Virus record (IMG/VR): IMGVR_UViG_2585427735_000017
From: a virus
Taxonomy: Duplodnaviria > Heunggongvirae > Uroviricota > Caudoviricetes
Strand: one strand, 5' to 3'
DNA length: 20,470 nucleotides
Positions 1 through 19,800 of this stretch are shown here, piece by piece (the stretch's first letter is position 1; each line of letters starts with the position of its first letter). Both the position numbers and the translations under genes were made by a program. A model generated the notes under the pieces. The model saw only the letters and a list, made by a program, of their open reading frames with translations, did not search any database and had not been told where the DNA came from.

Positions 1-1302
1 GGCTGTGGGGTATTTCCAGGGCCTCTCCTTTACCACTCTCGGGAAGGCCCTTTCCCTTCTTGTCGGTAATTTCACAAGTTGTCCCATACTTGCAAGATCG
101 CGCATCAGCTCCGGTATACGTCCCGGTGAAGCGCCCTGCAATGTCATCAGCATTCTCATCACCATTCCGCATGATTCTGAGAAACTCAGTTGATTCGGCC
201 AGTAACCTTTCAGATGTTCCGCCATTTTAATCATCTGATATCTCACCAGATTATAAGCCAGTAAGACACCCCACAGCTCTTGCTCCACAAGCTCCGGCTT
301 TTTACTTCTCAGCGTCAGCCTGCTCCGTTGCATCGTCTGTTTTATCTCCCTGTATCCCAGTTCGATTTCCCAGCGATGACTGTACAGATCCCCCATTTCT
401 CCTCCGGGGAAGCGCATGGCGTCCGTCATCGACGTCAGCAGATGGCAGACTTTTCCTTTGCGCGTCACGGTCAGCAGGCGGGCAGTCACTTCATTTCCCA
501 GTCCCGGCCACTTTTTTCGTGCCTGCGGGCTGGTTTTCAGCTTCACCAGATGATCGCCTTTACCCAGTTTTCTGATCTCTTCATATTGCGCTCCCTTTCT
601 GAGAGGTATCATCCAGTGGCGGTGTTCTCCCGCCAGGCTCCAGGCATTTAACAGTCCCAGTGAGTAATAACCTTTATCCATTAACGTCAGAGTGTTATCG
701 CCGGTTTGTTCTATAAGTTGCTCAGCAAGCTCATTTTCGCTGTTCTTCATCGTGCCGAAGGCTGCAGCCGTCAGCAGATGGCTGGTCAGTTCCATCTGGC
801 AGACCATTTTGACCTGCGGGTAGAGCGCCGGGTTCCCGGCATGTGTCTGGCGGGGGAAGGCTGCATCGTTCTCTGGTGTATCCGGTGTGCGCCAGAACAC
901 ACCATCGATGGCCAGCAGGGTCAGGCCGCACCAGTGCGGATGCGGCGTGGCGTTATGCCAGAGCTGCGCTGTTTTCGTGAACACGCGGCGGACAGCCTCA
1001 CTTCCCAGGCGCTGGCGGGCCTGAATAACGGCACTGGGGGCAACGAAGGGGCGATTGCCCGGCAACATGATGTCCAGGCGATTCACAATCTGGTGAAGAG
1101 GTTCTTTACGCTCAAGCGCCATGCCAACAATACACCAGACCATCATTTCGAGGGGAAGACGGCGCTTGCGTAGCGTTACAGTACCTGATTCGGCAAGGCA
1201 ACGAGAGATGAGTTCGGGGTCGAGGTAATCCCCCAGAGAAGTCAGTGGGTTACGCAGAGAATCGTAACGGGATACCAGATCAAGAGCCTGTCCAATGTGC
1301 AT
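1..1302 (-). CDS. insG: IS4-family DDE transposase (InsG-like), C-terminus truncated by window edge
   Basis: I translated the reverse complement from ATG (complement of 1300-1302) to position 1 by hand: 434 codons with no stop, [30 protein letters not shown]...[16 protein letters not shown]...RPWKYPTA. Absent from the ORF track only because the stop lies outside the window. Confidence 0.9.
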
Positions 1303-1386
1303 AAAAAAATCCGGAAACAAGTGAGCGTTTCCGGATTCTTACACAGCCACTGGATCGGTCAACTGATCCTTAACTGATCGGCATTA
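1..1386 (-). mobile_element. IS4: IS4 insertion sequence, partial (right terminus near 1386; left ~40 bp lies beyond the window start)
   Basis: The - strand encodes a recognisable IS4 transposase; the terminal sequence CCTTAACTGATCGGCATTA at 1368-1386 matches my recollection of the IS4 inverted-repeat end. Full IS4 is about 1.4 kb, so the other end falls just left of position 1. Confidence 0.85.
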
Positions 1387-1468
1387 CTACCTTCGGGTGG
1401 CCTTTTTTATTGCTGCGATCCGGATGGTGAGCAGCGTAACTGTCGGAAGACTTAAACCAGGTACTAAT

Positions 1469-2233
1469 ATGAAACTGAAAACGGTCGAGATTAACGGAAA
1501 ACAATACGCAGAAATTGATACTGCTGGCCTGCCAGTTTATGTGCACGACGATGGTAAAGAAATTGGCTTCGATGCACCGCTGGCGACAAAAAAAATTACA
1601 GAGCTTAATGGCGAGGCAAAAAATCATCGCCTGGCTAAAGAAGCTGCAGAGGAAAAACTGGCTAAGTTTGCCGCTATCGAAGACCCGAAGAAGGCGATCG
1701 AGGCACTGGAAATGCTGTCAAAAATCGACCAGAAAAAGCTGCTCGATGCGGGACAGGTTGACCAGGTTAAGGCAGAAATTACGAAAAATTTTCAGCAGCA
1801 ATTAGATGAAGAAAAGCAACGCTCTCAGATGCTGGAGAAGCAGCTTTACGATTCTATGATTGGCGGTAGTTTTGCGGGTTCAAAATATATTGCCGATAAA
1901 ATTGCGATCCCGGCAGATTTATTACAAGCCCGCTTCGGGCAGGCATTCAAAGTGGAAGAAGGGAGGATCGTTGCTTATGACGCTTCCGGCAACAAAATTT
2001 ATTCCCGCGCGAAGCCTGGCGAACTGGCGCAGTTTGATGAGGCGCTGGAGTTCCTTGTCGAAAATTACCCTCAGAAAGACTACATCCTGAAAGCCAGTGG
2101 CAACAATGGCGGCGGCTCCCGTCCGACACAGCATGATATTGGTCAGAAAACGATGAAACGCTCTGCTTTTGATGCACTGGATGTTGCAGGTAAGCAAAAC
2201 GCATTGAAAGACGGTATCACAATCGTTGATTAA
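1469..2233 (+). CDS. Putative head scaffolding protein
   Basis: Lys/Glu-rich 254 aa ORF (MKLKTVEINGKQYAEI...) directly upstream of the major capsid gene. Function inferred from position and composition only. Start uncertain: ATG 1469 chosen; ATG 1424 and GTG 1397 are in frame, and the open frame runs back into the IS4 end. Confidence 0.55.
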   Translation: MKLKTVEINGKQYAEIDTAGLPVYVHDDGKEIGFDAPLATKKITELNGEAKNHRLAKEAAEEKLAKFAAIEDPKKAIEALEMLSKIDQKKLLDAGQVDQVKAEITKNFQQQLDEEKQRSQMLEKQLYDSMIGGSFAGSKYIADKIAIPADLLQARFGQAFKVEEGRIVAYDASGNKIYSRAKPGELAQFDEALEFLVENYPQKDYILKASGNNGGGSRPTQHDIGQKTMKRSAFDALDVAGKQNALKDGITIVD

Positions 2234-2331
2234 CACATTTGTCAGCTTCCGGATGGGAGCTGGTGTCAGGGCTGGATAGCTCATTACTCCATCTATTCAC
2301 AATTACGCAAATTTTTAAGGAATATTTAATT

Positions 2332-3471
2332 ATGGCTGGAAATACCCTGACCGGGTTGATCCCGACTATTTATACCGCCCTGGATGTTGTATCCCGTGAG
2401 CAGGTAGGTTTTATCCCTGCGGTAGCAAAAAACGCAAAAGCTGACGCCGCAGCAAAAGATCAGACGGTAACCGCGCCAGTTGCGCCTGAGGCGAAAACCG
2501 AAGATATCGTACCGGGGCCGTCAGCTCCGAATACCGGTGATCAAAATATTGGCACTGTTGATGTAAAAATTACTAAATCCAAAATGGCACCGGTTAAATG
2601 GAATGGTGAAGAACAACTGGCTCTTGGCCCTTCAGGGACTTACAACACCATTCTGGCTGATCAGTTCAAGCAGGCTTTTCGCGCCCTTGCAAACGAGGTT
2701 GAGGCTGATCTTGGTGCGTTGTATTTCGGTGCTTCCCGCGCCGTGGGAACCGCAGGGACAACGCCGTTTGGTGTTAAAGATGATCTTTCTGATGCTGCTC
2801 TGGCTCGTCAGGTTCTGGAGGATAACGGCGCACCGACAACCGATCTGCAGATGGTGCTTGGCTCCACTGCCATTGCTAATTTGCGCGGAAAACAGTCTGT
2901 ATTGTTTAAAGTGAATGAATCCGGCACTGAACAGCTACTGCGTGAGGGCGTGTTGGGGCGTCTGGAGGGATTCAATATTCACAGTTCGGCAGGTGTGAAA
3001 CGAGCGCCAAAGGTTGCTGCAACTGGTTATCTCGTGAATGGAGAGAAAAAAGAAGGCGATGTTCTTATTTCCATTGATACTGGTTCGGGGAGTATTTCTG
3101 CAGGTCAGATTGTTACGTTCGCTGGTGATCCGAATCAGTATGTTGTGGCAGCAGCGACCAGCAATCTGATTACTCTTGCAGCGCCCGGACTGCGTCAGGA
3201 TCTGGCCGATGATACTGCCATCACAGTTGTTGGGGCCTTTACGGCAAATATGGCGTTTGATCGCAACGCGTTTCTGCTGGCATCCCGTACTCCGGCAATG
3301 CCGGAAGGTGGCGATAATGCTGATGATGTAATGAATGTTACGGACCCGATTTCAGGGATTACGTTCCAGATTGCACTGTATCGTCAGTATCGCCAGGTGC
3401 GCTATGAAGTTGGACTGGCATGGGGTGTTTCATCAGTGAAGCCGGCACATGGTTGTCTGATTCTTGGTTAA
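2332..3471 (+). CDS. Major capsid protein (family not identified)
   Basis: 379 aa ORF starting MAGNTLTGLIPTIY, with AAGGA ribosome-binding site about 10 nt upstream of ATG 2332, followed by a hairpin terminator; placed between scaffold-like and connector genes. The track start at 2239 has no ribosome-binding site. Confidence 0.7.
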   Translation: MAGNTLTGLIPTIYTALDVVSREQVGFIPAVAKNAKADAAAKDQTVTAPVAPEAKTEDIVPGPSAPNTGDQNIGTVDVKITKSKMAPVKWNGEEQLALGPSGTYNTILADQFKQAFRALANEVEADLGALYFGASRAVGTAGTTPFGVKDDLSDAALARQVLEDNGAPTTDLQMVLGSTAIANLRGKQSVLFKVNESGTEQLLREGVLGRLEGFNIHSSAGVKRAPKVAATGYLVNGEKKEGDVLISIDTGSGSISAGQIVTFAGDPNQYVVAAATSNLITLAAPGLRQDLADDTAITVVGAFTANMAFDRNAFLLASRTPAMPEGGDNADDVMNVTDPISGITFQIALYRQYRQVRYEVGLAWGVSSVKPAHGCLILG

Positions 3472-3481
3472 ACATTCAAAC

Positions 3482-3501
3482 GGGGCTTCGGCCCCATTTT
3501 T
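3482..3501 (+). terminator. Hairpin plus T-run after capsid gene (putative attenuator)
   Basis: GGGGC-TTCG-GCCCC stem-loop (5 bp stem, UUCG tetraloop) followed by ATTTTT, 11 nt after the capsid stop. Confidence 0.45.
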
Positions 3502-3513
3502 AATGGGGGGCAT

Positions 3514-3690
3514 ATGGCCGGATTAACTAAAGAGCAAAGAGCACAGCGTGAAGCCGCACAAAAAACGCAAATTGAGTTAGTGGTTATGGTGACCGATTAT
3601 CAGATGTTTCCCGGCGCACCAACTATCGCTAATGTTCATCCTGATGAAGTTGACAACTGGAAGGCTATGGGCTGGAAAACTCAGGAGTAA
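3514..3690 (+). CDS. Small hypothetical protein (58 aa), below the ORF-track cutoff
   Basis: ATG 3514 preceded by GGGGGG (short 3 nt spacer); translates MAGLTKEQRAQREAAQKTQIELVVMVTDYQMFPGAPTIANVHPDEVDNWKAMGWKTQE; exactly fills the gap between the capsid terminator and the next gene, same strand. Confidence 0.4.
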   Translation: MAGLTKEQRAQREAAQKTQIELVVMVTDYQMFPGAPTIANVHPDEVDNWKAMGWKTQE

Positions 3691-3693
3691 CAC

Positions 3694-4089
3694 ATGATCA
3701 CTTACGTGACCTGTGATGACGTTGATAATGCGTTTGGGAACGCCTGGACGAGTGAGAACGCTAAAAATAAAGCTGTTTTAATGGCTAATGCCTGGCTTAA
3801 TGGCTTCAACCTGAAAATTAACCCATCCCGTATTCCGGAAGAGGTAAAACTTGCGGGAGCATATGCAGCCAGAATTGCCTCATTCGGTAAGTTGTTTCAG
3901 CAGAAAAATGATTCTGGCGTTGTTATCAGTAAAGCCGTGTCGGCTGACGGGGTCAGTGTATCGAAATCATTTTCTGAGTTGCCAGCAAACAGCACTGCAT
4001 TGCTTGAACCCGATTTACAGCTTGCGATAGCACTGCTGAAACCGTACGGACTTAGTCGCTCACAAGTCAGGGTTGTGAGGGGGGGATAA
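3694..4089 (+). CDS. Putative head-tail connector / head completion protein
   Basis: 131 aa ORF with AGGAG ribosome-binding site; first of four small translationally coupled ORFs between capsid and tail tube genes. Function inferred from position. Confidence 0.55.
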   Translation: MITYVTCDDVDNAFGNAWTSENAKNKAVLMANAWLNGFNLKINPSRIPEEVKLAGAYAARIASFGKLFQQKNDSGVVISKAVSADGVSVSKSFSELPANSTALLEPDLQLAIALLKPYGLSRSQVRVVRGG

Positions 4090-4472
4090 TGGGGCTTCGT
4101 GAAGAGATTCAGTCAGAGGTTGCCGCTGCTTTTGATGAGGATTTAACGGACGCCGTGAGTGATTTTTCTGGTTCTTACGTTACGCACCGGCACTGGGATC
4201 CTGTGACGGAAACTGGCGGCGAATCCACCGCAATCTATACCGGGCGAGGCGTGTTGACACGTTATAAGCTGGGCAGAATTGATGGGATTAATATTTTGCA
4301 TGGTGACCTTAAATTAACCGCTCTGGTATGCGAGGTTACGGATAAACCAGCTGTCGACCATATTATTGAGATTTATGATCCTGTATCAAGGCAGTTACAA
4401 CGATACGAGGTAATTACAGCAAGTGTAGATCCTTCCGCATCAGTTTACTCTATCCAGTTAAGGAGAGCGTAA
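4089..4472 (+). CDS. Putative head-tail joining protein
   Basis: 127 aa ORF; start overlaps the upstream stop (TAATG); synteny with head-tail joining genes of siphophages. Confidence 0.55.
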   Translation: MGLREEIQSEVAAAFDEDLTDAVSDFSGSYVTHRHWDPVTETGGESTAIYTGRGVLTRYKLGRIDGINILHGDLKLTALVCEVTDKPAVDHIIEIYDPVSRQLQRYEVITASVDPSASVYSIQLRRA

Positions 4473-4853
4473 ATGGCAAAGGCATGGGATATAGAACCGT
4501 CAATATTTGCCGGGATGATTGAGGAAGATGTAGGGCTGAAGATTCGCTACATCGCTATTCAGATTCTTACTGCTATTGATATTGCTGCTCCGGTTGATAC
4601 CGGACGTTTCAGAAATAACAACCTGGTGTCGTTACAGCATCCCGATTTTGGTATATCTGATAACGTGGATCCGAACGGTACGATTGCTGTTCAGCGTGGG
4701 ATCGGGGTTATTTCGAAAGCTGCAAATTACGGAGTTATTTATATCCAGAATAACCTTCCTTATGCAGAGGCTCTTGAAAACGGTCATTCACAACAAGCGC
4801 CAACTGGCGTGTATGCCAACGCTTTTCATGGTGTTTTACAGGCTTACAAATGA
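4473..4853 (+). CDS. Putative tail completion / neck protein (HK97 gp10-like)
   Basis: 126 aa ORF with AAGGAGAG ribosome-binding site; contains a PVDTGRFRNN motif that I recall as typical of the HK97 gp10 family. From memory, unverified. Confidence 0.6.
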   Translation: MAKAWDIEPSIFAGMIEEDVGLKIRYIAIQILTAIDIAAPVDTGRFRNNNLVSLQHPDFGISDNVDPNGTIAVQRGIGVISKAANYGVIYIQNNLPYAEALENGHSQQAPTGVYANAFHGVLQAYK

Positions 4854-5242
4854 CGTTTACTGAAATCAGAAATACGGTTATTTCCAGAATGACGGCACAG
4901 ACGATTATTGATGGAAAAGACGTATTGTATCCGAACGCGCCAACGTTCGATCCTTCCGGTAAGTTAATCTGGGCGCGGTTAAGTAATATTCCCGGGCAGG
5001 CTGGAGTTAATGAAATTGGCGCGGGGCCGATTGTTTATCGCACGGGGATAATCATTATTCAGTTATTTGTCCCCGCAGGTTCTGGTTCAAAACTCATTAC
5101 TGAGACAGCCGATAAATTGCGGGAACTGTTTGAGTTTCAGGATGACGATCGTCTCAGTTACCAGGCTGTTTCCTCAATAGCCGTTGGCGAAAAGAATGGC
5201 TGGTTCCAGCTTAATCTTCAAATTCCATATCGCGCGCTCTAG
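4850..5242 (+). CDS. Putative tail terminator / tail completion protein
   Basis: 130 aa ORF with ATGA start-stop overlap with the upstream gene; sits immediately before the major tail gene, the lambda U-equivalent position. Confidence 0.55.
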   Translation: MTFTEIRNTVISRMTAQTIIDGKDVLYPNAPTFDPSGKLIWARLSNIPGQAGVNEIGAGPIVYRTGIIIIQLFVPAGSGSKLITETADKLRELFEFQDDDRLSYQAVSSIAVGEKNGWFQLNLQIPYRAL

Positions 5243-5268
5243 CGCAATTAATGACATAGGAGGCTCCT

Positions 5269-6231
5269 GTGAGTTCAGGTGCAAAGGTTATCTCGGCATT
5301 TATCCGGGAGACGGTTGCAGGCACTACGCCAGCAAGTGGTGACTGGAGTTTATTAAAACGCACAAGCTGGGGAGTAAAACCCACCCAGAATAAAGGCGAA
5401 AATAATGAGATTGGTGGCTCCCGGATGGCTCAGGGGGCGACGCCTGGCACTGTGGATGTCGGCGGTGATGTTGGTACCAAATTTCGCTGGGGTCAACATG
5501 ATGATTTTCTTGCATCCTGTTTCGGCGCGGAATGGTCAGGCGATTCTCTGACAATGGGGAATGAGCGAATAACATTTTCTCTGGCGACCTATGCGTCCGA
5601 TGTCGGAATTGCCTCTGTCGTCAGAGGAGCGCAGGTTGGCTCATGGAAAATGCAGATCCCTAACGACGGCGATATTACAGTGACCGTAACCTTTGCCGGA
5701 CTGGACTGGGAATCAAAGGCCGATGATACGAATTTTATCAAAGGCGAACCTGTGGATAGTGCAGGAAAGCTACGTTATTCGTTTAAGGAGGTTTCAGCAG
5801 TAAGCCTGAATGGTGTTGCCGGAGGTAACGGTTTTTGTATCGACAGTTTTGATATTCAGTTCGATAACAAACTCCAGACACAGCGTTGTATCGGGACTGG
5901 CTCGCCTTATGCAGGAGCAAATATTCCGACTACTTTTACACCGTCCGGTACGGTGACGCTTTCATGGTCTAAAGCCGCGTGGGAAATCTGGAGTAAAACA
6001 CTGACTGGAGAAACAGTTCCGTTCAGCTTCACGCTTTCGAATGGAGAGGGGGCATACACTTTCAGTTTCCCGAAGGTTCAGGTGTCAGGTGAATGGCCTG
6101 ATGGGGGTAATAGCGACATTATCCAGGTTCAATTGAGCATTACCGCAGCAGATGAAGCACCTACGATAACCAGAAAAAAAAATTCCCCGGCTGCCGTGAT
6201 CGCAAAAGCCAGTGCTGAGGCGATTAGTTGA
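5269..6231 (+). CDS. Major tail (tube) protein
   Basis: 320 aa ORF with GTG start 5 nt after a TAGGAGG ribosome-binding site; lies between the terminator-like gene and the chaperone pair. Not lambda V-like by recollection. Confidence 0.7.
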   Translation: MSSGAKVISAFIRETVAGTTPASGDWSLLKRTSWGVKPTQNKGENNEIGGSRMAQGATPGTVDVGGDVGTKFRWGQHDDFLASCFGAEWSGDSLTMGNERITFSLATYASDVGIASVVRGAQVGSWKMQIPNDGDITVTVTFAGLDWESKADDTNFIKGEPVDSAGKLRYSFKEVSAVSLNGVAGGNGFCIDSFDIQFDNKLQTQRCIGTGSPYAGANIPTTFTPSGTVTLSWSKAAWEIWSKTLTGETVPFSFTLSNGEGAYTFSFPKVQVSGEWPDGGNSDIIQVQLSITAADEAPTITRKKNSPAAVIAKASAEAIS

Positions 6232-6279
6232 TTTTCCGTTATTCCTCCTGTGGTACTGCCCTACAGGGGGACGCATTGA

Positions 6280-6741
6280 ATGAGGTTATGGATGTTTATT
6301 CTTAATCAGAAAATTATCATTGGTGGAGAACGCTGGTTTACGCCAATGAAGGACTTAAAACCTGTAGACGGGTTAAAACTGTTGGTGGCAAGCAGCGATA
6401 ACGATCAGTATCGCTCCCGTAATGCATTAATCCGTCGCCACATTGAGAAAATGGATGCCAGTTTGCACGTCGGAACGAAGGAGTTTGATATTTCAAAGGT
6501 TTCCGAGGTGGATTCTGTTGATGATTTACTCATTGATAATGCCGCTCGTTATCTGCTGAAAGACTGGAAAGGGGTTGGTGAACTGGTTAATGGTGTTGAG
6601 GTTGCACTGGAATATACGGCAGAACGAGGGATCGCGCTGCTTAAGCAGAATCCAGAGTTGTACTGGCAGATCCTTGCAGAAGCAGCCAGCATCGCCCAGG
6701 GTAAAGAGCAGCAGAAGCAGGATACGATAAAAAAGCCATAG
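6280..6741 (+). CDS. Tail assembly chaperone (lambda G analogue)
   Basis: 153 aa ORF ending 4 nt after an A_AAA_AAG slippery heptamer, with the -1 frame open for a further ~100 codons: the conserved G/GT arrangement. An alternative start at ATG 6345 would give 132 aa. Confidence 0.7.
   Translation: MRLWMFILNQKIIIGGERWFTPMKDLKPVDGLKLLVASSDNDQYRSRNALIRRHIEKMDASLHVGTKEFDISKVSEVDSVDDLLIDNAARYLLKDWKGVGELVNGVEVALEYTAERGIALLKQNPELYWQILAEAASIAQGKEQQKQDTIKKP
6729..6735 (+). promoter_or_regulatory. Candidate programmed -1 ribosomal frameshift site (slippery heptamer A_AAA_AAG)
   Basis: AAAAAAG at 6729-6735 is in the X_XXY_YYZ register of the 6280 ORF (codons AAA AAG), 4 nt before its stop TAG 6739-6741; the -1 frame is open from here to 7049. 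Confidence 0.6.
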
Positions 6742-7049
6742 CTGCCCAGCGGTGGTTATCGGAGTTCGGGGGAGAAAGGGGGGAAAAGGCAAGATGGAAG
6801 CGAGAAAAACTCAGGTTGCCACCGATACCGGAACCAGAAATAGACCCGGTGCTTAAGGAGTTGTTGTACGCCTATTCGGTAATATCCCGTGCCCGACGTT
6901 ATGCTGGAATGGCTGGGGTGCCTTTGCCTTTATCTCTGACAGAGATAAATGAATATTTAGCCACTCATCCGGTATTGATTGAGCGCGATGAATTTGAAGC
7001 AGTGATCTTTGCACTGGATGACCAGTATTTTCAGGAGCAGTGTGTGTAG
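6729..7049 (+). CDS. Tail assembly chaperone C-terminal extension (lambda T analogue), expressed as a G-T fusion by -1 frameshift
   Basis: The -1 frame has no stop from 6735 to TAG 7047-7049. The track ORF 6816..7049 begins at a TTG inside this frame and lacks an independent ATG and ribosome-binding site. Confidence 0.55.
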   Translation, partial: KKAIAAQRWLSEFGGERGEKARWKREKLRLPPIPEPEIDPVLKELLYAYSVISRARRYAGMAGVPLPLSLTEINEYLATHPVLIERDEFEAVIFALDDQYFQEQCV

Positions 7050-7169
7050 TTGTTAATTACGTACACTCTGTTACAGAGATGTGATGGTGTCTTTAATTAA
7101 ATCGATGATGCTCCTGGAGAAAAGCATTGCGTGACCTCGTAATCGCTATATCTACTATTATGTCGCCTG

Positions 7170-7194
7170 AAACCCACTTCGCGGTGGGTTTTTT
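7170..7194 (+). terminator. Rho-independent terminator-like hairpin upstream of the tape measure gene
   Basis: AAACCCAC-TTCGCG-GTGGGTTT stem (8 bp) running into TTTTTTG, about 20 nt before the AGGAG ribosome-binding site and ATG 7215. Confidence 0.5.
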
Positions 7195-7214
7195 GTTGTC
7201 AGGAGTTTTAATAA

Positions 7215-7841
7215 ATGGCAGAGCAAACCTCGCGTCTCGCAATAATTATTGATAGCACTGGAGCGAAAAATAATGCTGACAATCTGACCTCCTCATTAGT
7301 CAAAATGACGCAGGCTGGGGAAACTGCTGCAAATAGCGCAGGGAAAGTGACTAAGGCAACAGAAGATGAGAAGAACGCGCTCGCAAAATTAAAAGCAGCT
7401 ATTGATCCAGTTGGTGCCGCAATTGATACTGTCGGTCGACGCTATTCTGAATTAAAGAAATTTTTCGATAAAGGGCTTATTGATAAAGAAGAATATGAAT
7501 TTCTTGTCCGTAAACTTAATGAAACCACAGAGGAATTGAGCGGGGTTGCGCAAGCGCAGAGAGAAGCCGAGAAGGCCGGAAAACTTGCTGCCGCCCAGCA
7601 GGAAGCGCAGGCTCAGGCCTTTCAAAGAATGCTGGACAAGATCGACCCTCTGGCTGCGGCGCTAAGAAATCTTGAACAACAGCATGATGAACTTAATGCT
7701 GCGTTTGCATCCGGGAAAATAAATGGTTCTCAGTTTGAGAATTATAGCCGAAAAATACAGGAAACACGGCGAGAGCTTACCGGAGAGGCTCAGGCAGAGC
7801 GAGAAGCAGCAAAAGCGCATGATGAAGATGCTTTCTCCTGA
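7215..7841 (+). CDS. Tape measure protein, N-terminal coiled-coil segment (frame A), ends in premature stop
   Basis: 208 aa ORF with AGGAG ribosome-binding site; Ala/Glu/Gln/Lys-rich with repeated heptad-like motifs ([18 protein letters not shown] / [17 protein letters not shown]). Overlaps the main tape measure frame by ~120 nt. Confidence 0.6.
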
Positions 7842-10341
7842 AATGTATGAGGAGCTTTCTGGAAAACTTCGTGCTATGCGGAGTGAGCTTGAGGTTACTC
7901 AATCACAATTAAGCAAAACCGGAATGTCGGCAAAACAAACGGCTTTTGCTATGCGCATGTTGCCTGCACAAATGACGGATATTGTTGTTGGGTTGTCCAC
8001 TGGTCAGTCGCCATTTATGGTGTTAATGCAGCAGGGCGGCCAGCTAAAAGATATGTTCGGTGGGATTGGCCCGGCGATCAAAGGTGTAGGTTCTTATGTG
8101 CTGGGATTAATTAATCCTTTTACCCTGGCCGCAGCAGCCGTTGGGGTCTTAGGACTGGCTTACTATAAAGGCTCTCAGGAGCAGGACGAATTTAATAAAT
8201 CTCTTATTCTTACCGGAAATCAGTTGGGGACAACCAGCGGGCAATTGGGCGATATAGCTCAACGTGCCGGGAATGCGGCTGATTCGACAACTGGTGCTGC
8301 GGCGGCAGTATTAAATCAGCTTGTGCGTTCGGGAAAGGTAGCGAGCAGTTCGCTGGAGCAAGTGACGACAGCGATAGTAAAAACGAGCGAAGTAACAGGA
8401 ATATCAACCGAACAACTGGTTAATGACTTCAATGAAATTGCAAAGGATCCTGTCAGTGCCATATCAAAACTTAATGATCAGTACCATTTTCTGACACTTG
8501 CGACTTATAACCAGATTAAGGCGCTACAGGATGAAGGGAACCAGCAGGAGGCCGCCCGCATTGCGACAGAAGAATACTCATCCTCAATGATCCAGCGCAC
8601 CAACCAGATTAAAGAAAATCTTGGTTATCTTGAGACTGCATGGAAAGCTGTCGCAGACTCCGCAAAATGGGCATGGGATTCCATGCTGGATATTGGCCGT
8701 GAGGCCTCCCTTGATCAAAAAATCTCAGATGTTCTCCGTCAAATTGATGAAATAGAAAAAAATCCCCGACCCGGAGTTTTCGGGTTAGGTGGCATTGGAG
8801 ATGGCGGAGCTCAAAATAAAAGGCTGGCACGATTAAAGCAGCAATTGGGCGTACTTCAAGCAGAAAAAATTGCTCAGGACGTACTAAATTCATCAATAAA
8901 CGATTACAACAAGCGACAACAGGAAGGAATTGAACTCAGACAGAGAGCAGATGCCTTTTCAAAACAATATCAGACCCGGGAGCAGCAGAGAGCTAGTGAA
9001 CTTGCAAAACTGGAAAAGCTAAAGAATCAGTATTCAAAGGAAGAATATAATAATCTTATCGCTCAAATAAATGAGCGTTATAAAGATCCAAAGCAACCAA
9101 AGGCGAAAGGTTATTCTGATGATGCAGCCCAACGAATGATTGATCATCTGAATCAACAGAATGCGTTACTAAGTTCACAAGCTGAGTTGACCGTTAAATT
9201 AAGTTCCTCTGAACAGGAACTGGTTAAGTGGCGTCAGCGGATTGCCGACCTAGAGTCACGACCATCATCGAAATTAACCCAGGATCAGAAATCGCTTCTC
9301 TTCCACCGGGAAGAAATAACCGCGTTGATGGAGAAAAATGTTGCGATTGAAAAGAATAACAGGCTAATCAAGGAATCCGCCGAAATAACAGCATGGCGTG
9401 ATTCATTGCAGGCTTCGATTGATAATCGTCAGCAGGGGTATGATATTCAGATTGCTGGTTATGGGGTTGGCGATAAAAATCAGCAACGCCAGCAGGAATT
9501 ACTGCGGATTGAACATGGATATAACAATCAGCGTCTGCAACTTGAACGTGACTATGCAGATAAATCCCGTGGAATGTCAGATCATGTTTTTCAAGAGAAA
9601 ATGCAGGCTCTGAATGATGCTCTGGAACGGGAAAAAGAAATTGTCAGACAGAAAAACGAGCAACTCGATATTCAGGCAGGAGACTGGGTTAGTGGTGCCT
9701 CCCAGGGATTCAATAACTGGCTGGATGACACTAAGGATATCAGTGAGCAGATAAAATCAACCACGACTCAGATGTTTGATGGGATGACCGATGCGCTGGG
9801 TGATTTTGTCACGACAGGCAAGGCAAATTTTCGTTCTTTCGCTACTTCCGTGATTTCGGATCTTAGTCGAATGGCATTAAAGGCTTCAATTACTGGGATT
9901 TTCGACAGCATTAGTAACAGTTCTTCTGGGGGGATTTTAGGAACTATCGGGAGTGCTATTAGTAAATTTATTCCGAATGCAAAGGGCGGTGTTTATGAGT
10001 CTCCGTCATTGAGCACGTATTCGAACGGTATTTATGATTCCCCGCAATTTTTTGCTTTTGCAAAAGGGGCTGGTGTTTTTGGTGAGTCTGGACCGGAAGC
10101 CATTATGCCATTAACACGAACTTCCGATGGTTCTCTTGGTGTCAGAGCTATTAATAGTAAAAGTGGTAATGGAGGCGGAGATATTACCTATGCCCCTGTA
10201 TACCAAATCACTATTCAAAATGACGGCCAGAATGGAGAGATTGGCCCTCAGGCAATAAAAGCACTTATGGGGATGGTTGATCAGCGGGTGCAGGGCAATC
10301 TGTTAAATATGCGACGTGATGGGGGAATATTAAGTGGCTAA
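7723..10341 (+). CDS. H: Tail length tape measure protein (lambda H-like), main frame B
   Basis: 872 aa ORF; [41 protein letters not shown] and the C-terminal [35 protein letters not shown] match recalled lambda H motifs. ATG 7723 is only the first ATG after a stop in this frame; the true N-terminus is probably the 7215 ORF. Confidence 0.85.
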
Positions 10342-10672
10342 TACGGAAGAATTTCACTGGTTACCAGAGGATGGAATGAAAACAGAAAATAAACCATCGA
10401 TAAAAACTGTAAGATTTGGCGATGGTTATGAGCAACGAAGTCCAAATGGACTTAATCATTCTCTGCGCGTTTTCACCTGTGATTTCAAAGTTGAGGCGAA
10501 TGAACGTGATTCATTTGAAAAATTTTTAGCCCGGCATGAAGGCTATAAATCTTTTTTTTGGCGCCCGCCGGGTATTAACAGAAAAATCAGAGTGGTGTGT
10601 CGAACGTGGTCAGCGACAGAACATATCACCTATACAGATTTTTCGTGTCAGTTTGACGAAGTGGTGATCTGA
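10334..10672 (+). CDS. M: Minor tail protein M
   Basis: 112 aa ORF; [10 protein letters not shown]...YKSFFWRP...FDEVV resembles lambda M motifs but the N-terminus diverges. GTG start at 10334 with GGGGGA ribosome-binding site; alternative ATG at 10376. Confidence 0.8.
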
Positions 10673-11370
10673 TGCAGGACATACAACAGGAAACGCTGAA
10701 TGAATGCATTCGTGCGGAGCAGTCGGCCAGCGTGGTGCTCTGGGAAATCGACCTGACCGAGGTAGGCGGGGATCGCTACTTTTTCTGTAATGAGCAGAAC
10801 GAAAAAGGTGAGTCTGTCACCTGGCAGAGTCGGCAGTATCAGGCCTATCCCATTCAGGGGAGTGGATTTGAGATGAACGGCAAGGGCAGTGCTGCCCGTC
10901 CGACACTGACGGTCTCTAACCTGCACGGCATGATCACCGGGATGGCGGAAGATCTGCAGAGTCTGGTCGGCGGAACGGTGGTCCGGCGTAAGGTTTACGC
11001 CCGCTTTCTGGATGCGGTGAACTTCGTCAACGGAAACAGCGAAGCCGATCCGGAGCAGGAGGTGATCAGCCGCTGGCGCATCGAGCAGTGCAGCGAACTG
11101 AGCGCGGTCAGTGCCTCTTTTGTACTGTCCACGCCGACTGAAACGGATGGCGCTGTTTTTCCGGGACGTATCATGCTGGCCAACACCTGCACCTGGACCT
11201 ATCGCGGCGATGAGTGCGGTTATAGCGGTCCGGCGGTCGCGGATGAATATGACCAGCCGACGTCCGATATCACGAAGGATAAATGCAGCAAATGCCTGAG
11301 TGGCTGTAAGTTTCGCAATAATGTCGGCAACTTTGGCAGCTTCCTTTCCATTAACAAACTTTCGCAGTAA
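10672..11370 (+). CDS. L: Minor tail protein L
   Basis: 232 aa; [33 protein letters not shown]...CSKCLSGCKFRNNVGNFGSFLSINKLSQ is near-identical to lambda L as I recall it. Start overlaps the M stop (TGATG). Confidence 0.92.
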   Translation: MQDIQQETLNECIRAEQSASVVLWEIDLTEVGGDRYFFCNEQNEKGESVTWQSRQYQAYPIQGSGFEMNGKGSAARPTLTVSNLHGMITGMAEDLQSLVGGTVVRRKVYARFLDAVNFVNGNSEADPEQEVISRWRIEQCSELSAVSASFVLSTPTETDGAVFPGRIMLANTCTWTYRGDECGYSGPAVADEYDQPTSDITKDKCSKCLSGCKFRNNVGNFGSFLSINKLSQ

Positions 11371-12721: not shown

Positions 12722-16120
<3,399 letters not shown>

Positions 16121-16186: not shown

Positions 16187-16786
16187 ATGCGTAAACTTTA
16201 TGCCGCCATTTTGTCCGCAGCCATTTGTCTGGCCGTATCCGGTGCGCCTGCATGGGCGTCTGAACATCAGTCCACGCTGAGCGCGGGGTATCTTCATGCC
16301 CGGACGAACGTTCCCGGCAGCGATGATCTTAACGGGATTAACGTGAAATACCGTTATGAGTTTACGGACACACTGGGGCTGGTGACGTCATTCAGCTATG
16401 CAGGAGACAAGAATCGCCAGCTTACCCGTTACAGCGATACCCGCTGGCATGAAGATTCCGTGCGTAACCGCTGGTTCAGCGTGATGGCGGGGCCGTCTGT
16501 ACGCGTGAATGAATGGTTCAGCGCGTATGCGATGGCGGGTGTGGCTTACAGCCGTGTGTCGACTTTCTCCGGGGATTATCTCCGCGTAACTGACAACAAG
16601 GGGAAAAAGCACGATGTGCTGACCGGAAATGATGACGGTCGCCACAGCAACACGTCTCTGGCGTGGGGGGCTGGCGTGCAGTTTAACCCGACCGAGTCCG
16701 TGGCCATTGATGTCGCTTATGAAGGTTCCGGCAGTGGCGACTGGCGCACTGACGGTTTCATCGTGGGTGTCGGTTATAAATTCTGA
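16187..16786 (+). CDS. lom: Lom outer-membrane protein (Ail/Lom family beta-barrel)
   Basis: 199 aa; signal peptide [24 protein letters not shown]; C-terminal [23 protein letters not shown] matches the lambda Lom C-terminus; GAGAGG ribosome-binding site. Confidence 0.92.
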
Positions 16787-16812
16787 TTAGCCAGGTAACA
16801 CAGTGTTATGAC

Positions 16813-16839
16813 AGCCCGCCGGTTCAGGCGGGCTTTTTT
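16813..16839 (+). terminator. Rho-independent terminator after lom
   Basis: GCCCGCC-GGTTCA-GGCGGGC stem-loop followed by TTTTTT, ending 11 nt before the stf ATG. Confidence 0.6.
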
Positions 16840-16850
16840 GTGGGGTGAAT

Positions 16851-19800
16851 ATGGCAGTAAAGATTTCAGGTGTACTGAAAGACGGCACAGGAAAACCGGT
16901 ACAGAACTGCACAATCCAGCTGAAAGCAAAACGTAACAGCAACACGGTGGTGGTGAACACGCTGGCCTCAGAAAATCCGGATGAAGCCGGGCGTTACAGT
17001 ATGGACGTTGAGTACGGGCAGTACAGCGTTATTCTGTTGGTGGAGGGATTCCCGCCGTCACATGCCGGGACCATCACCGTGTATGAAGATTCTCAACCCG
17101 GTACGCTGAATGATTTTCTCGGTGCCATGACGGAGGATGATGCCCGTCCGGAGGCACTGCGACGTTTTGAACTGATGGTGGAAGAGGTGGCGCGTAACGC
17201 GTCCGCGGTGGCACAGAACACAGCAGCCGCGAAGAAGTCAGCCAGCGATGCCAGCACATCAGCCCGTGAGGCGGCAACCCATGCGACTGATGCTGCAGGC
17301 TCAGCACGCGCAGCCAGCACGTCAGCCGGACAGGCCGCGTCGTCGGCTCAGTCAGCGTCTTCCAGCGCAGGAACGGCATCAGCAAAGGCCACTGAAGCAT
17401 CAAAAAGTGCTGCCGCTGCAGAGTCCTCAAAAAGCGCGGCGGCTACCAGTGCCGGTGCGGCGAAAACGTCAGAAACGAATGCGGCAGCGTCACAACAATC
17501 AGCAGCCACTTCTGCATCCACCGCGACCACGAAAGCGTCAGAAGCAGCCACTTCAGCACGGGATGCGTCGGCTTCAAAAGAGGCGGCAAAATCATCAGAA
17601 ACGAACGCAGCCTCGAGCGCCAGCAGCGCAGCTTCCTCGGCTACGGCGGCAGGAAATTCCGCGAAGGCGGCAAAAACGTCCGAGACGAACGCCAGGTCTT
17701 CTGAAACGGCAGCGGAACAGAGTGCCTCCGCAGCAGCAGGCTCAAAAACAGCGGCTGCGTCGTCTGCCAGTGCCGCGTCAACAAGTGCCGGGCAGGCCTC
17801 AGCCAGTGCCACCGCCGCCGGAAAATCGGCAGAAAGCGCCGCATCGTCTGCTTCAACAGCCACAACGAAGGCTGGCGAAGCCACTGAACAGGCCAGCGCA
17901 GCAGCGAGGTCTGCTTCCGCAGCGAAGACATCCGAAACGAATGCGAAAGCGTCGGAAACCAGTGCAGAATCCTCAAAAACGGCAGCCGCATCGTCCGCCA
18001 GTTCGGCGGCGTCATCGGCATCATCTGCGTCTGCTTCAAAAGATGAGGCGACCAGACAAGCGTCAGCAGCGAAGGGCAGCGCCACGACAGCATCCACGAA
18101 GGCGACAGAGGCAGCTGGCAGTGCGACGGCGGCAGCACAGAGCAAAAGTACGGCGGAATCCGCGGCAACGCGCGCTGAGACAGCGGCAAAACGGGCAGAG
18201 GATATTGCATCCGCCGTGGCGCTTGAGGATGCGAGCACGACGAAAAAGGGGATAGTACAGCTCAGCAGTGCGATCGACAGCACTTCCGAGTCACTGGCGG
18301 CAACGCCAAAAGCAGTTAAGGCCGCGTATGACCTGGCTAACGGGAAATACACCGCACAGGATGCAACGACAGCACAGAAAGGGATAGTCCAGCTAAGCAG
18401 CGCGACCAACAGCACGTCTGAAACGCTGGCGGCAACGCCAAAGGCAGTAAAAGCAGCCAATGACAATGCTGAGAAACGTCTGCAGAAAGATCAGAACGGT
18501 GCGGATATCCCTGGCAAAGACACCTTTACGAAAAATATTGGTGCCAGCCGTGCCTTCGGTGGGTCAGTAAGCACAACAACAGGAGACTGGACGACTGCAC
18601 AGTTTATCGAGTGGCTGGATTCTCAGGGAGCATTTAACCATCCATACTGGATGTGCAAGGGTTCCTGGTCTTATGGCAATAATAAAATCATTACTGATAC
18701 TGGCTGCGGTAATATTCATCTCGCCGGAGCTGTCATTGAAGTAATGGGGATAAAGTCAGCGATGACGATCCGCATTACCACACCGACCACCTCCACTGGT
18801 GGTGGAACAACTAACGCCCAGTTTACCTATATTAATCACGGAACAGATTATTCACCTGGCTGGCGAAGGGACTATAACTCCAGAAATAAGCCAACGGCAT
18901 CAGAGATCGGGGCGTTACCGTCAGGTGGAACAGCAGTATCATCAGTTAATCTGGCTTCAAAAGGTCGGGTAATCGCGCTGACAGACAATACGCAGGGGGC
19001 AACAGGTCTTGAGTTATACGAGGTGTATAACAACGGATATCCAACAGCGTATGGAAATATCATTCACCTGAAAGGGATGACAGCCGTTGGCGAAGGTGAG
19101 TTACTCATCGGCTGGAGTGGTACAAGCGGTGCTCATGCTCCGGCATTTATTCGTTCACGACGGGATACGACCGACGCAAACTGGTCGCCGTGGGCGCAGC
19201 TTTACACCTCAGCTCATCCTCCTGCAGAGTTTTATCCAGTCGGTGCACCAATCCCGTGGCCATCAGATACCGTTCCGTCTGGCTATGCCCTGATGCAGGG
19301 GCAGACTTTTGACAAATCTGCTTACCCGAAACTTGCAGCCGCTTATCCGTCAGGCGTGATCCCTGATATGTGTGGCTGGACGATTAAGGGCAAACCTGCC
19401 AGTGGTCGAGCCGTATTATCTCAGGAACAGGACGGCATTAAATCGCACACCCACAGCGCCAGCGCATCCAGTACGGATTTGGGGACGAAAACCACATCGT
19501 CGTTTGATTACGGCACTAAATCCACGAATAACACCGGGGCACATACACACAGTGTGAGCGGCTCTACAAACTCGGCTGGAGCACACACACACTCACTAGC
19601 CAACGTGAACACGGCTAGTGCTAACTCCGGTGCTGGTAGTGCATCAACAAGATTGTCTGTTGTGCATAATCAAAACTATGCAACATCATCTGCTGGCGCA
19701 CATACCCACTCACTGTCCGGCACTGCTGCAAGCGCAGGTGCACACGCACATACTGTCGGTATTGGTGCTCATACGCACTCCGTTGCGATTGGTTCACATG

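Follow-up and report, generated by a model that had tools for sequence, protein, structure and literature searches.

An IS4 copy at a predicted intergenic terminator upstream of the scaffolding and capsid genes of a defective Rac-type prophage

The window, by which we mean the whole stretch of 20,470 nucleotides analysed here, corresponds to positions 3-20472 of JOQC01000002.1 in the draft assembly GCA_000713905.1, with 0 mismatches over the 17.8 kb compared. Its left end is occupied by the insertion sequence IS4, which is followed closely by two intact head genes of a lambdoid prophage (Table 1). Window positions 1-1386 correspond to positions 41-1426 of the 1426-bp element, window position 1 being IS4 position 41. 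Of the element's 1426 nt, 1386 are visible, and the remaining 40, which include the left inverted repeat, lie off the window.

Table 1. Coordinates of the features at the left end of the window.
Feature	Position	Strand	Details
IS4	1..1386	-	1 nt different from the L003 copy; 99.3-99.6% identity to copies in 3141 E. coli genomes
IS4 transposase InsG	1..1302	-	434 of 442 codons, from ATG at 1302; last 8 codons and stop off the window
Hairpin internal to IS4, then T7	1304..1340	-	Directly upstream of the transposase ATG; -22.7 kcal/mol, z -6.9
Promoter-like site	1362-1335	-	TTGACC-16-AAGAAT with TG
IS4 right terminal inverted repeat	1369..1386	.	Read from the end, TAATGCCGATCAGTTAAG; ends ...GGCATTA at 1386
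Terminator remnant	1387..1408	+	5-bp stem CTACC/GGTGG, TTCG loop, CC, T6
Right-hand copy of the target-site duplication (predicted)	1387..1398	+	CTACCTTCGGG(T/TG/TGG), 11-14 bp; by analogy with L003-L005 and 24 of 26 complete copies
Head scaffolding gene (254 aa, DUF6651), intact	1469..2233	+	PF20356, 8.7e-61; phrog_206 'head scaffolding protein', 2.1e-22
Major capsid gene (379 aa, P22 coat fold family), intact	2332..3471	+	PF11651, 1e-12; RefSeq annotation

The identity values for IS4 in Table 1 were obtained by a BLAST comparison of window positions 1-1386 with 5426 complete E. coli genomes, and the 1426-bp copy from which this segment differs by a single nucleotide is that of the rpoD/mug locus in strain FDAARGOS_1249 (L003). 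The visible transposase frame is open to the window edge, agrees with WP_000483767.1 at 434 of 434 amino acids and contains the Pfam domains PF13006 (Nterm_IS4, 2.9e-33) and PF01609 (DDE_Tnp_1, 2.8e-31). PGAP starts InsG at a TTG at 1320, six codons upstream of the ATG at 1302. A hallmark of IS4 is a pair of 18-bp imperfect terminal inverted repeats starting TAATGCC. The right repeat in the window and the left repeat of other IS4 copies, TAATGCCAGTCAGTTAAG, agree at 16 of 18 positions, and the left end of the element (TAATGCCAGTCAG... / TAATGCCAGTCAGTTAAGC) lies outside the window. The initial annotation had named the element IS4, placed its right end at about 1386 and described the transposase as directed away from the phage genes; the near-identity to 1426-bp copies, the complete agreement of the visible transposase codons, the terminal repeat and the minus-strand reading frame bear out all three statements. 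BLAST matches ran on to about 1410-1416, because terminator-like targets at separate loci resemble one another. An element extending that far was rejected, as the extra 24-30 nt vary among loci, and the 1426-bp length of the element is consistent with an end at 1386. This IS4 is canonical and probably still active.

Two other structures belonging to IS4 were observed. The hairpin at 1304-1340 is part of canonical IS4 and is absent from the terminator-scan listing; it resembles an internal terminator or a translation-masking structure and would block read-through from outside. IS4 positions 1-40, read from the rpoD/mug copy (L003 561-600), hold a perfect 11-bp hairpin, GCCAGTCAGTT-AAGC-AACTGACTGGC, followed by TCTTTTT (-18.7 kcal/mol, z -4.4). 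This left-end hairpin also looks like a terminator, the second such structure in IS4, and faces transcription arriving from the left; the source contig begins just past it.

To the right of IS4, window positions 1387-3500 are 100% identical to a Rac-type prophage carried by hundreds of E. coli genomes, among them the fuller Rac prophage of strain ECCHD184, and to the Salmonella phage SPF_0923 (ON032529). The Rac-type prophage of these relatives lies between trkG/ynaK and ompN, and its genes are ordered small terminase, large terminase, portal (DUF4055), Mu-F-like minor head protein (PF04233; PHROG 241, 'head morphogenesis'), scaffold, coat and tail genes. This is a head module of the P22/SPP1 type, with small and large terminase, portal, Mu-F-like protein, scaffold and P22-fold coat, and no nesting of protease and scaffold was found in the head module of intact relatives. 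The window shares the order of head and tail genes with the ECCHD184 prophage and SPF_0923 but differs from both in three respects: IS4 lies in the spacer, the tape-measure gene has lost 107 bp and the J frame is broken. The scaffolding protein is 100% identical in hundreds of genomes, in which RefSeq starts it at the ATG found at 1469 in the window. This ATG lies 82 nt beyond the end of IS4, and the initial placement of the first phage gene within 80 nt of the element was about right.

The insertion site was reconstructed from 11 uninterrupted relatives (L001, L002 and L006-L014). Their 104-nt spacer between the minor head and scaffold genes is the same throughout, except that two relatives differ at a single base close to the start of the scaffold gene. 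The intact target, ...GGGATTTAAATAAATCATTTATTACAACAGG^CTACCTTCGGGTGGCCTTTTTTATTGC... (the caret marks the IS4 point), is identical in all 11 at the site, and the spacer read from the minor head stop runs TAA-ATAAATCATTTATTACAACAGG^CTACCTTCGGGTGGCCTTTTTTATTGC..., with the TAA located 22 nt before the insertion point. By comparison with these relatives, the coding sequence on the right side of the insertion is uninterrupted. A comparison of the flank with related prophages had been proposed initially as a way to find the interrupted gene; on the right side of the target, it returned an intact intergenic region free of any head-gene fragment.

Within the spacer of the relatives, we identified a predicted terminator, AGGCTACC-TTCG-GGTGGCCT-TTTTTT, consisting of an 8-bp stem, a TTCG loop and T6 and beginning 20 nt past the minor head stop codon. 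A folding energy of -13.8 kcal/mol (z -4.85) was calculated for the intact hairpin, which the terminator scan also lists in the ECCHD184 prophage (L001). What is predicted at the target is a GC-rich stem-loop with an immediate T-run downstream of a gene, the form of a rho-independent terminator, and IS4 sits within the 5' arm of this predicted intergenic hairpin. In the window the T-run of the remnant starts 17 nt from the end of IS4, and the predicted duplication coincides with the inner stem and loop of the terminator. The left A-run is missing at the target (TTATTACAACAGG); the T-run is present.

We surveyed the target preference of IS4 using all exact matches to its last 24 nt, with one genome per species (98 stretches). 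A TTTT started 13-20 nt from the IS end in 66 of the 90 distinct right flanks in other genomes (73%), compared with a background of 8.3% for 20,000 positions drawn at random from these loci. Among 26 complete IS4 copies with both flanks, 24 had duplications of 11-14 bp, and most of the reconstructed targets fold as A-run, hairpin and T-run. Both runs were present at 13 of these copies, only the T-run at 4 (a less common type, to which the window site belongs), only the A-run at 4 and neither at 5. Terminator-like hairpins were likewise found at three other IS4 copies (rpoD/mug, tRNA-Pro/yejO and next to eno; L003-L005), with the hairpin centre duplicated over 11-14 bp. The window target, which in relatives is a hairpin plus T6, fits the arrangement of A-run, palindrome and T-run, though its left A-run is absent. 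The pattern of the survey, taken with the T-run at 17 nt, therefore indicates that the window site is a normal IS4 choice. Strong conservation in the target arms has been described for the IS4 subgroup (PMC2266710), and the survey agrees with this description.

The exact right ends recovered in the survey (L019-L116), often many per genome, came from Rahnella, Kosakonia, Pantoea, Scandinavium, Pectobacterium, Photorhabdus, Rosenbergiella and Photobacterium. An IS4 right end was also present on single short contigs with the labels Nostoc and Methylobacterium, which may be contamination. The two complete copies that have no duplication are both from Shigella flexneri (L047 and L088; CP182556.1). 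Each is a complete IS4 with non-matching flanks, and the last 12 bases of the left flank of L088 are the same as those of the left flank of L058. These flanks suggest inversions or deletions through IS4-IS4 recombination in that genome.

Mayaux et al. in 1984 reportedly described IS4 in the pheST attenuator and proposed the target consensus AAA-N20-TTT, and the older literature is said to give the IS4 bias only as this loose consensus. The survey results are in line with it. Where we sought an explicit statement in the literature that IS4 targets terminators, general remarks only were found. It is conceivable, if on the doubtful side, that IS4 and its close relatives in the Enterobacterales and Photobacterium are dedicated terminator seekers that read structure and geometry and not sequence. 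The excess of T-runs at the 90 sites (73% versus 8% in the background) is consistent with such a reading. If it is true, half-terminators would bracket each new copy, insulating it from host transcription and sparing host genes.

Other insertion sequences also enter intergenic hairpins. IS621, IS1397 and ISPpu9 insert into extragenic palindromes (REP), and terminator-like sequences have been described beside insertion sequences (PMC13548323; PMC3184786). IS4 resembles these REP-targeting elements in its insertion at intergenic hairpins, in its avoidance of gene disruption and in the terminator-like structures that flank the transposase gene. It differs from them as a DDE cut-and-paste element with an 11-14 bp duplication, and it appears to recognise a loose architecture of A-run, palindrome and T-run, not a specific repeat family.

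Compared with IS4 of E. coli K-12 (insG; IS4 family, IS4 subgroup), the window copy is alike both in the element, which is 1 nt from a 1426-bp E. coli copy and has an identical transposase where visible, and in the type of target, a hairpin centre with a T-run, with 11-14 bp duplications at other copies. Only the insertion site differs. The right junction of the window occurs in 0 of 5426 complete E. coli genomes, in which the best coverage of window positions 1-1500 was 94%, and it was not found among GTDB species representatives or in JGI metagenomes. A search of the JGI metagenomes for the predicted left junction, with variable duplication length allowed, likewise found none. An exact-sequence look-up of the scaffolding protein returned only uninterrupted prophages, because the protein is present in 9269 blocks.

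We consider it likely that the locus arose by a simple insertion of IS4 into the terminator hairpin in the minor head/scaffold spacer of a Rac-type lambdoid prophage. As the contig begins within IS4, a simple insertion is likely and not proven. A canonical IS4 would have transposed into the prophage of the E. coli strain represented by GCA_000713905.1, at a site picked by the usual preference of the element for a short palindrome with a flanking A-run and/or T-run. A rho-independent terminator has just this look. The staggered cut would duplicate the central 11-14 bp of the hairpin, and part of the hairpin would therefore be kept at each junction. The left junction predicted by a simple insertion is ...TTATTACAACAGGCTACCTTCGGG(T/TG/TGG), followed by the TAATGCC of IS4. 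The insertion would have separated the packaging and portal genes from the scaffold, capsid and tail genes by a further 1.4 kb, in which the transposase is antisense to late transcription, and would have weakened the terminator by reducing its stem from 8 to 5 pairs.

Regarding its effect on the phage genes, IS4 had been suggested to separate the head genes from their late promoter. This held in the physical sense, as IS4 lies between the scaffold and capsid genes and all upstream genes of the late operon. In lambdoid phages, late transcription is subject to antitermination. This would account for the tolerance of a terminator within the late operon and also suggests that IS4 need not be strongly polar on the late genes. 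The insertion may be recent and selectively neutral in a prophage that was already defective.

An alternative that we regard as unlikely is that IS4 marks a rearrangement breakpoint, at which, having inserted here or at another terminator, it recombined with a second IS4 so that the packaging, portal and minor-head genes were deleted or moved and the head and tail genes of the window are an orphaned prophage remnant. The source contig starts inside the element, at IS4 position 39, and leaves the left flank outside; IS4 also appears to be multi-copy in the sample, since a second contig, from the Logan assembly, stops 28 nt into the element, as would be expected at a repeat boundary. Two of the 26 complete copies have no target duplication, so IS4 copies do recombine with one another. 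Truncation by insertion sequences or deletions is frequent in Rac-type prophages, as by ISKpn26 in the tape-measure gene of L001 or by the loss of the genes from terminase to minor head in L015, and the window prophage already has other lesions. However, simple insertion with a duplication accounts for 24 of the 26 complete copies (92%), and the right flank starts at the normal target geometry of IS4, with the T-run at its usual distance from the end. Such a geometry means that IS4 inserted here, and later recombination at its other end would still be compatible with it.

The initial annotation proposed that IS4 may have cut a head gene upstream, such as a protease in which the scaffold is nested in-frame as in lambda C/Nu3, and had correctly noted that the open frame of the scaffold enters the IS4 terminus. 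In the window, the 34 codons that precede the ATG in this frame contain no stop, the first being a TGA at 1364 inside IS4, and the phage record SPF_0923 annotates a longer, GTG-initiated ORF. In the intact relatives, however, this frame is closed by a TGA that lies 138 nt before the ATG, inside the terminal part of the minor head gene. The minor head gene is itself in a different frame, terminates ahead of the insertion point in all 11 relatives and ends 104 nt before the scaffold ATG. It encodes a Mu-F-like protein of head morphogenesis rather than a fusion of protease and scaffold. The GTG at 1397 falls inside the terminator stem and is not credible as a scaffold start, and RefSeq uses the ATG in hundreds of genomes. 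Compared with the relatives, the open frame upstream of the scaffold ATG is untranslated intergenic sequence, and we consider the truncation of a head gene extremely improbable. We attach just as little probability to an assembly artefact, in which the IS4 repeat and a prophage contig end would have been joined into a chimera. It is true that the draft contig starts within a repeat and that the window is taken from its beginning. Against this, the same IS4/phage junction and the sequence downstream of it are present in a separately assembled Logan contig, SRR1186690_161, which covers window positions 1359-10739 with 1 mismatch in 9381 nt and ends 28 nt inside IS4. The identical junction in an independent assembly therefore argues that it is no chimera, and the join coincides exactly with the terminus of IS4, at a site that is a textbook target of the element.

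The window presents a familiar element that sits at a target of its usual type, in a prophage undergoing decay. Its importance beyond annotation is little, apart from one wider point: IS4 lands in terminator hairpins, so that an IS4 found beside a gene start usually signals that a neighbouring terminator, not the gene, has been struck. The start of the scaffold gene should be recorded as the ATG at 1469, with no head gene entered as disrupted by IS4. Read against its relatives, the prophage is defective for reasons apart from IS4, namely the tape-measure deletion and the broken J frame, and it should be treated as defective through these lesions and not through the insertion.

Other decay of the same prophage was seen in the relatives. 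In L001 (E. coli ECCHD184), an IS5-like element, ISKpn26, truncates the tape-measure gene at 16786-17766 and the remainder of the tail module is absent, which is a further independent route of decay. L015 (E. coli CP057166.1, at about 3900-4000) is a Rac-type prophage that lacks the genes from terminase to minor head and has no insertion sequence at the deletion joint. We rejected the possibility that this deletion shares the IS4 site, as its joint is found beyond the terminator, about 30 nt before the scaffold ATG.

In the tape-measure gene of the window (7215-10341), the 107-bp deletion relative to SPF_0923 is located at 7826/7827 and results in a truncated product of 208 aa and a separate downstream ORF. 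The same deletion is present in three independent contigs, from NCBI, the Logan assembly and an ENA metagenome; an exact-sequence look-up of the truncated product returned three contigs, among them JOQC01000002.1. The J tail-tip gene (12725-16120) is interrupted, with a 1017-aa ORF that stops at 15778 and a 1-nt gap near 15705 when compared with the J gene of a relative. The Ig_GpJ_C domain of J is found in a separate 67-aa ORF at 15917-16120, and the C-terminal part of J diverges from that of the comparator, which suggests a mosaic receptor-binding end.
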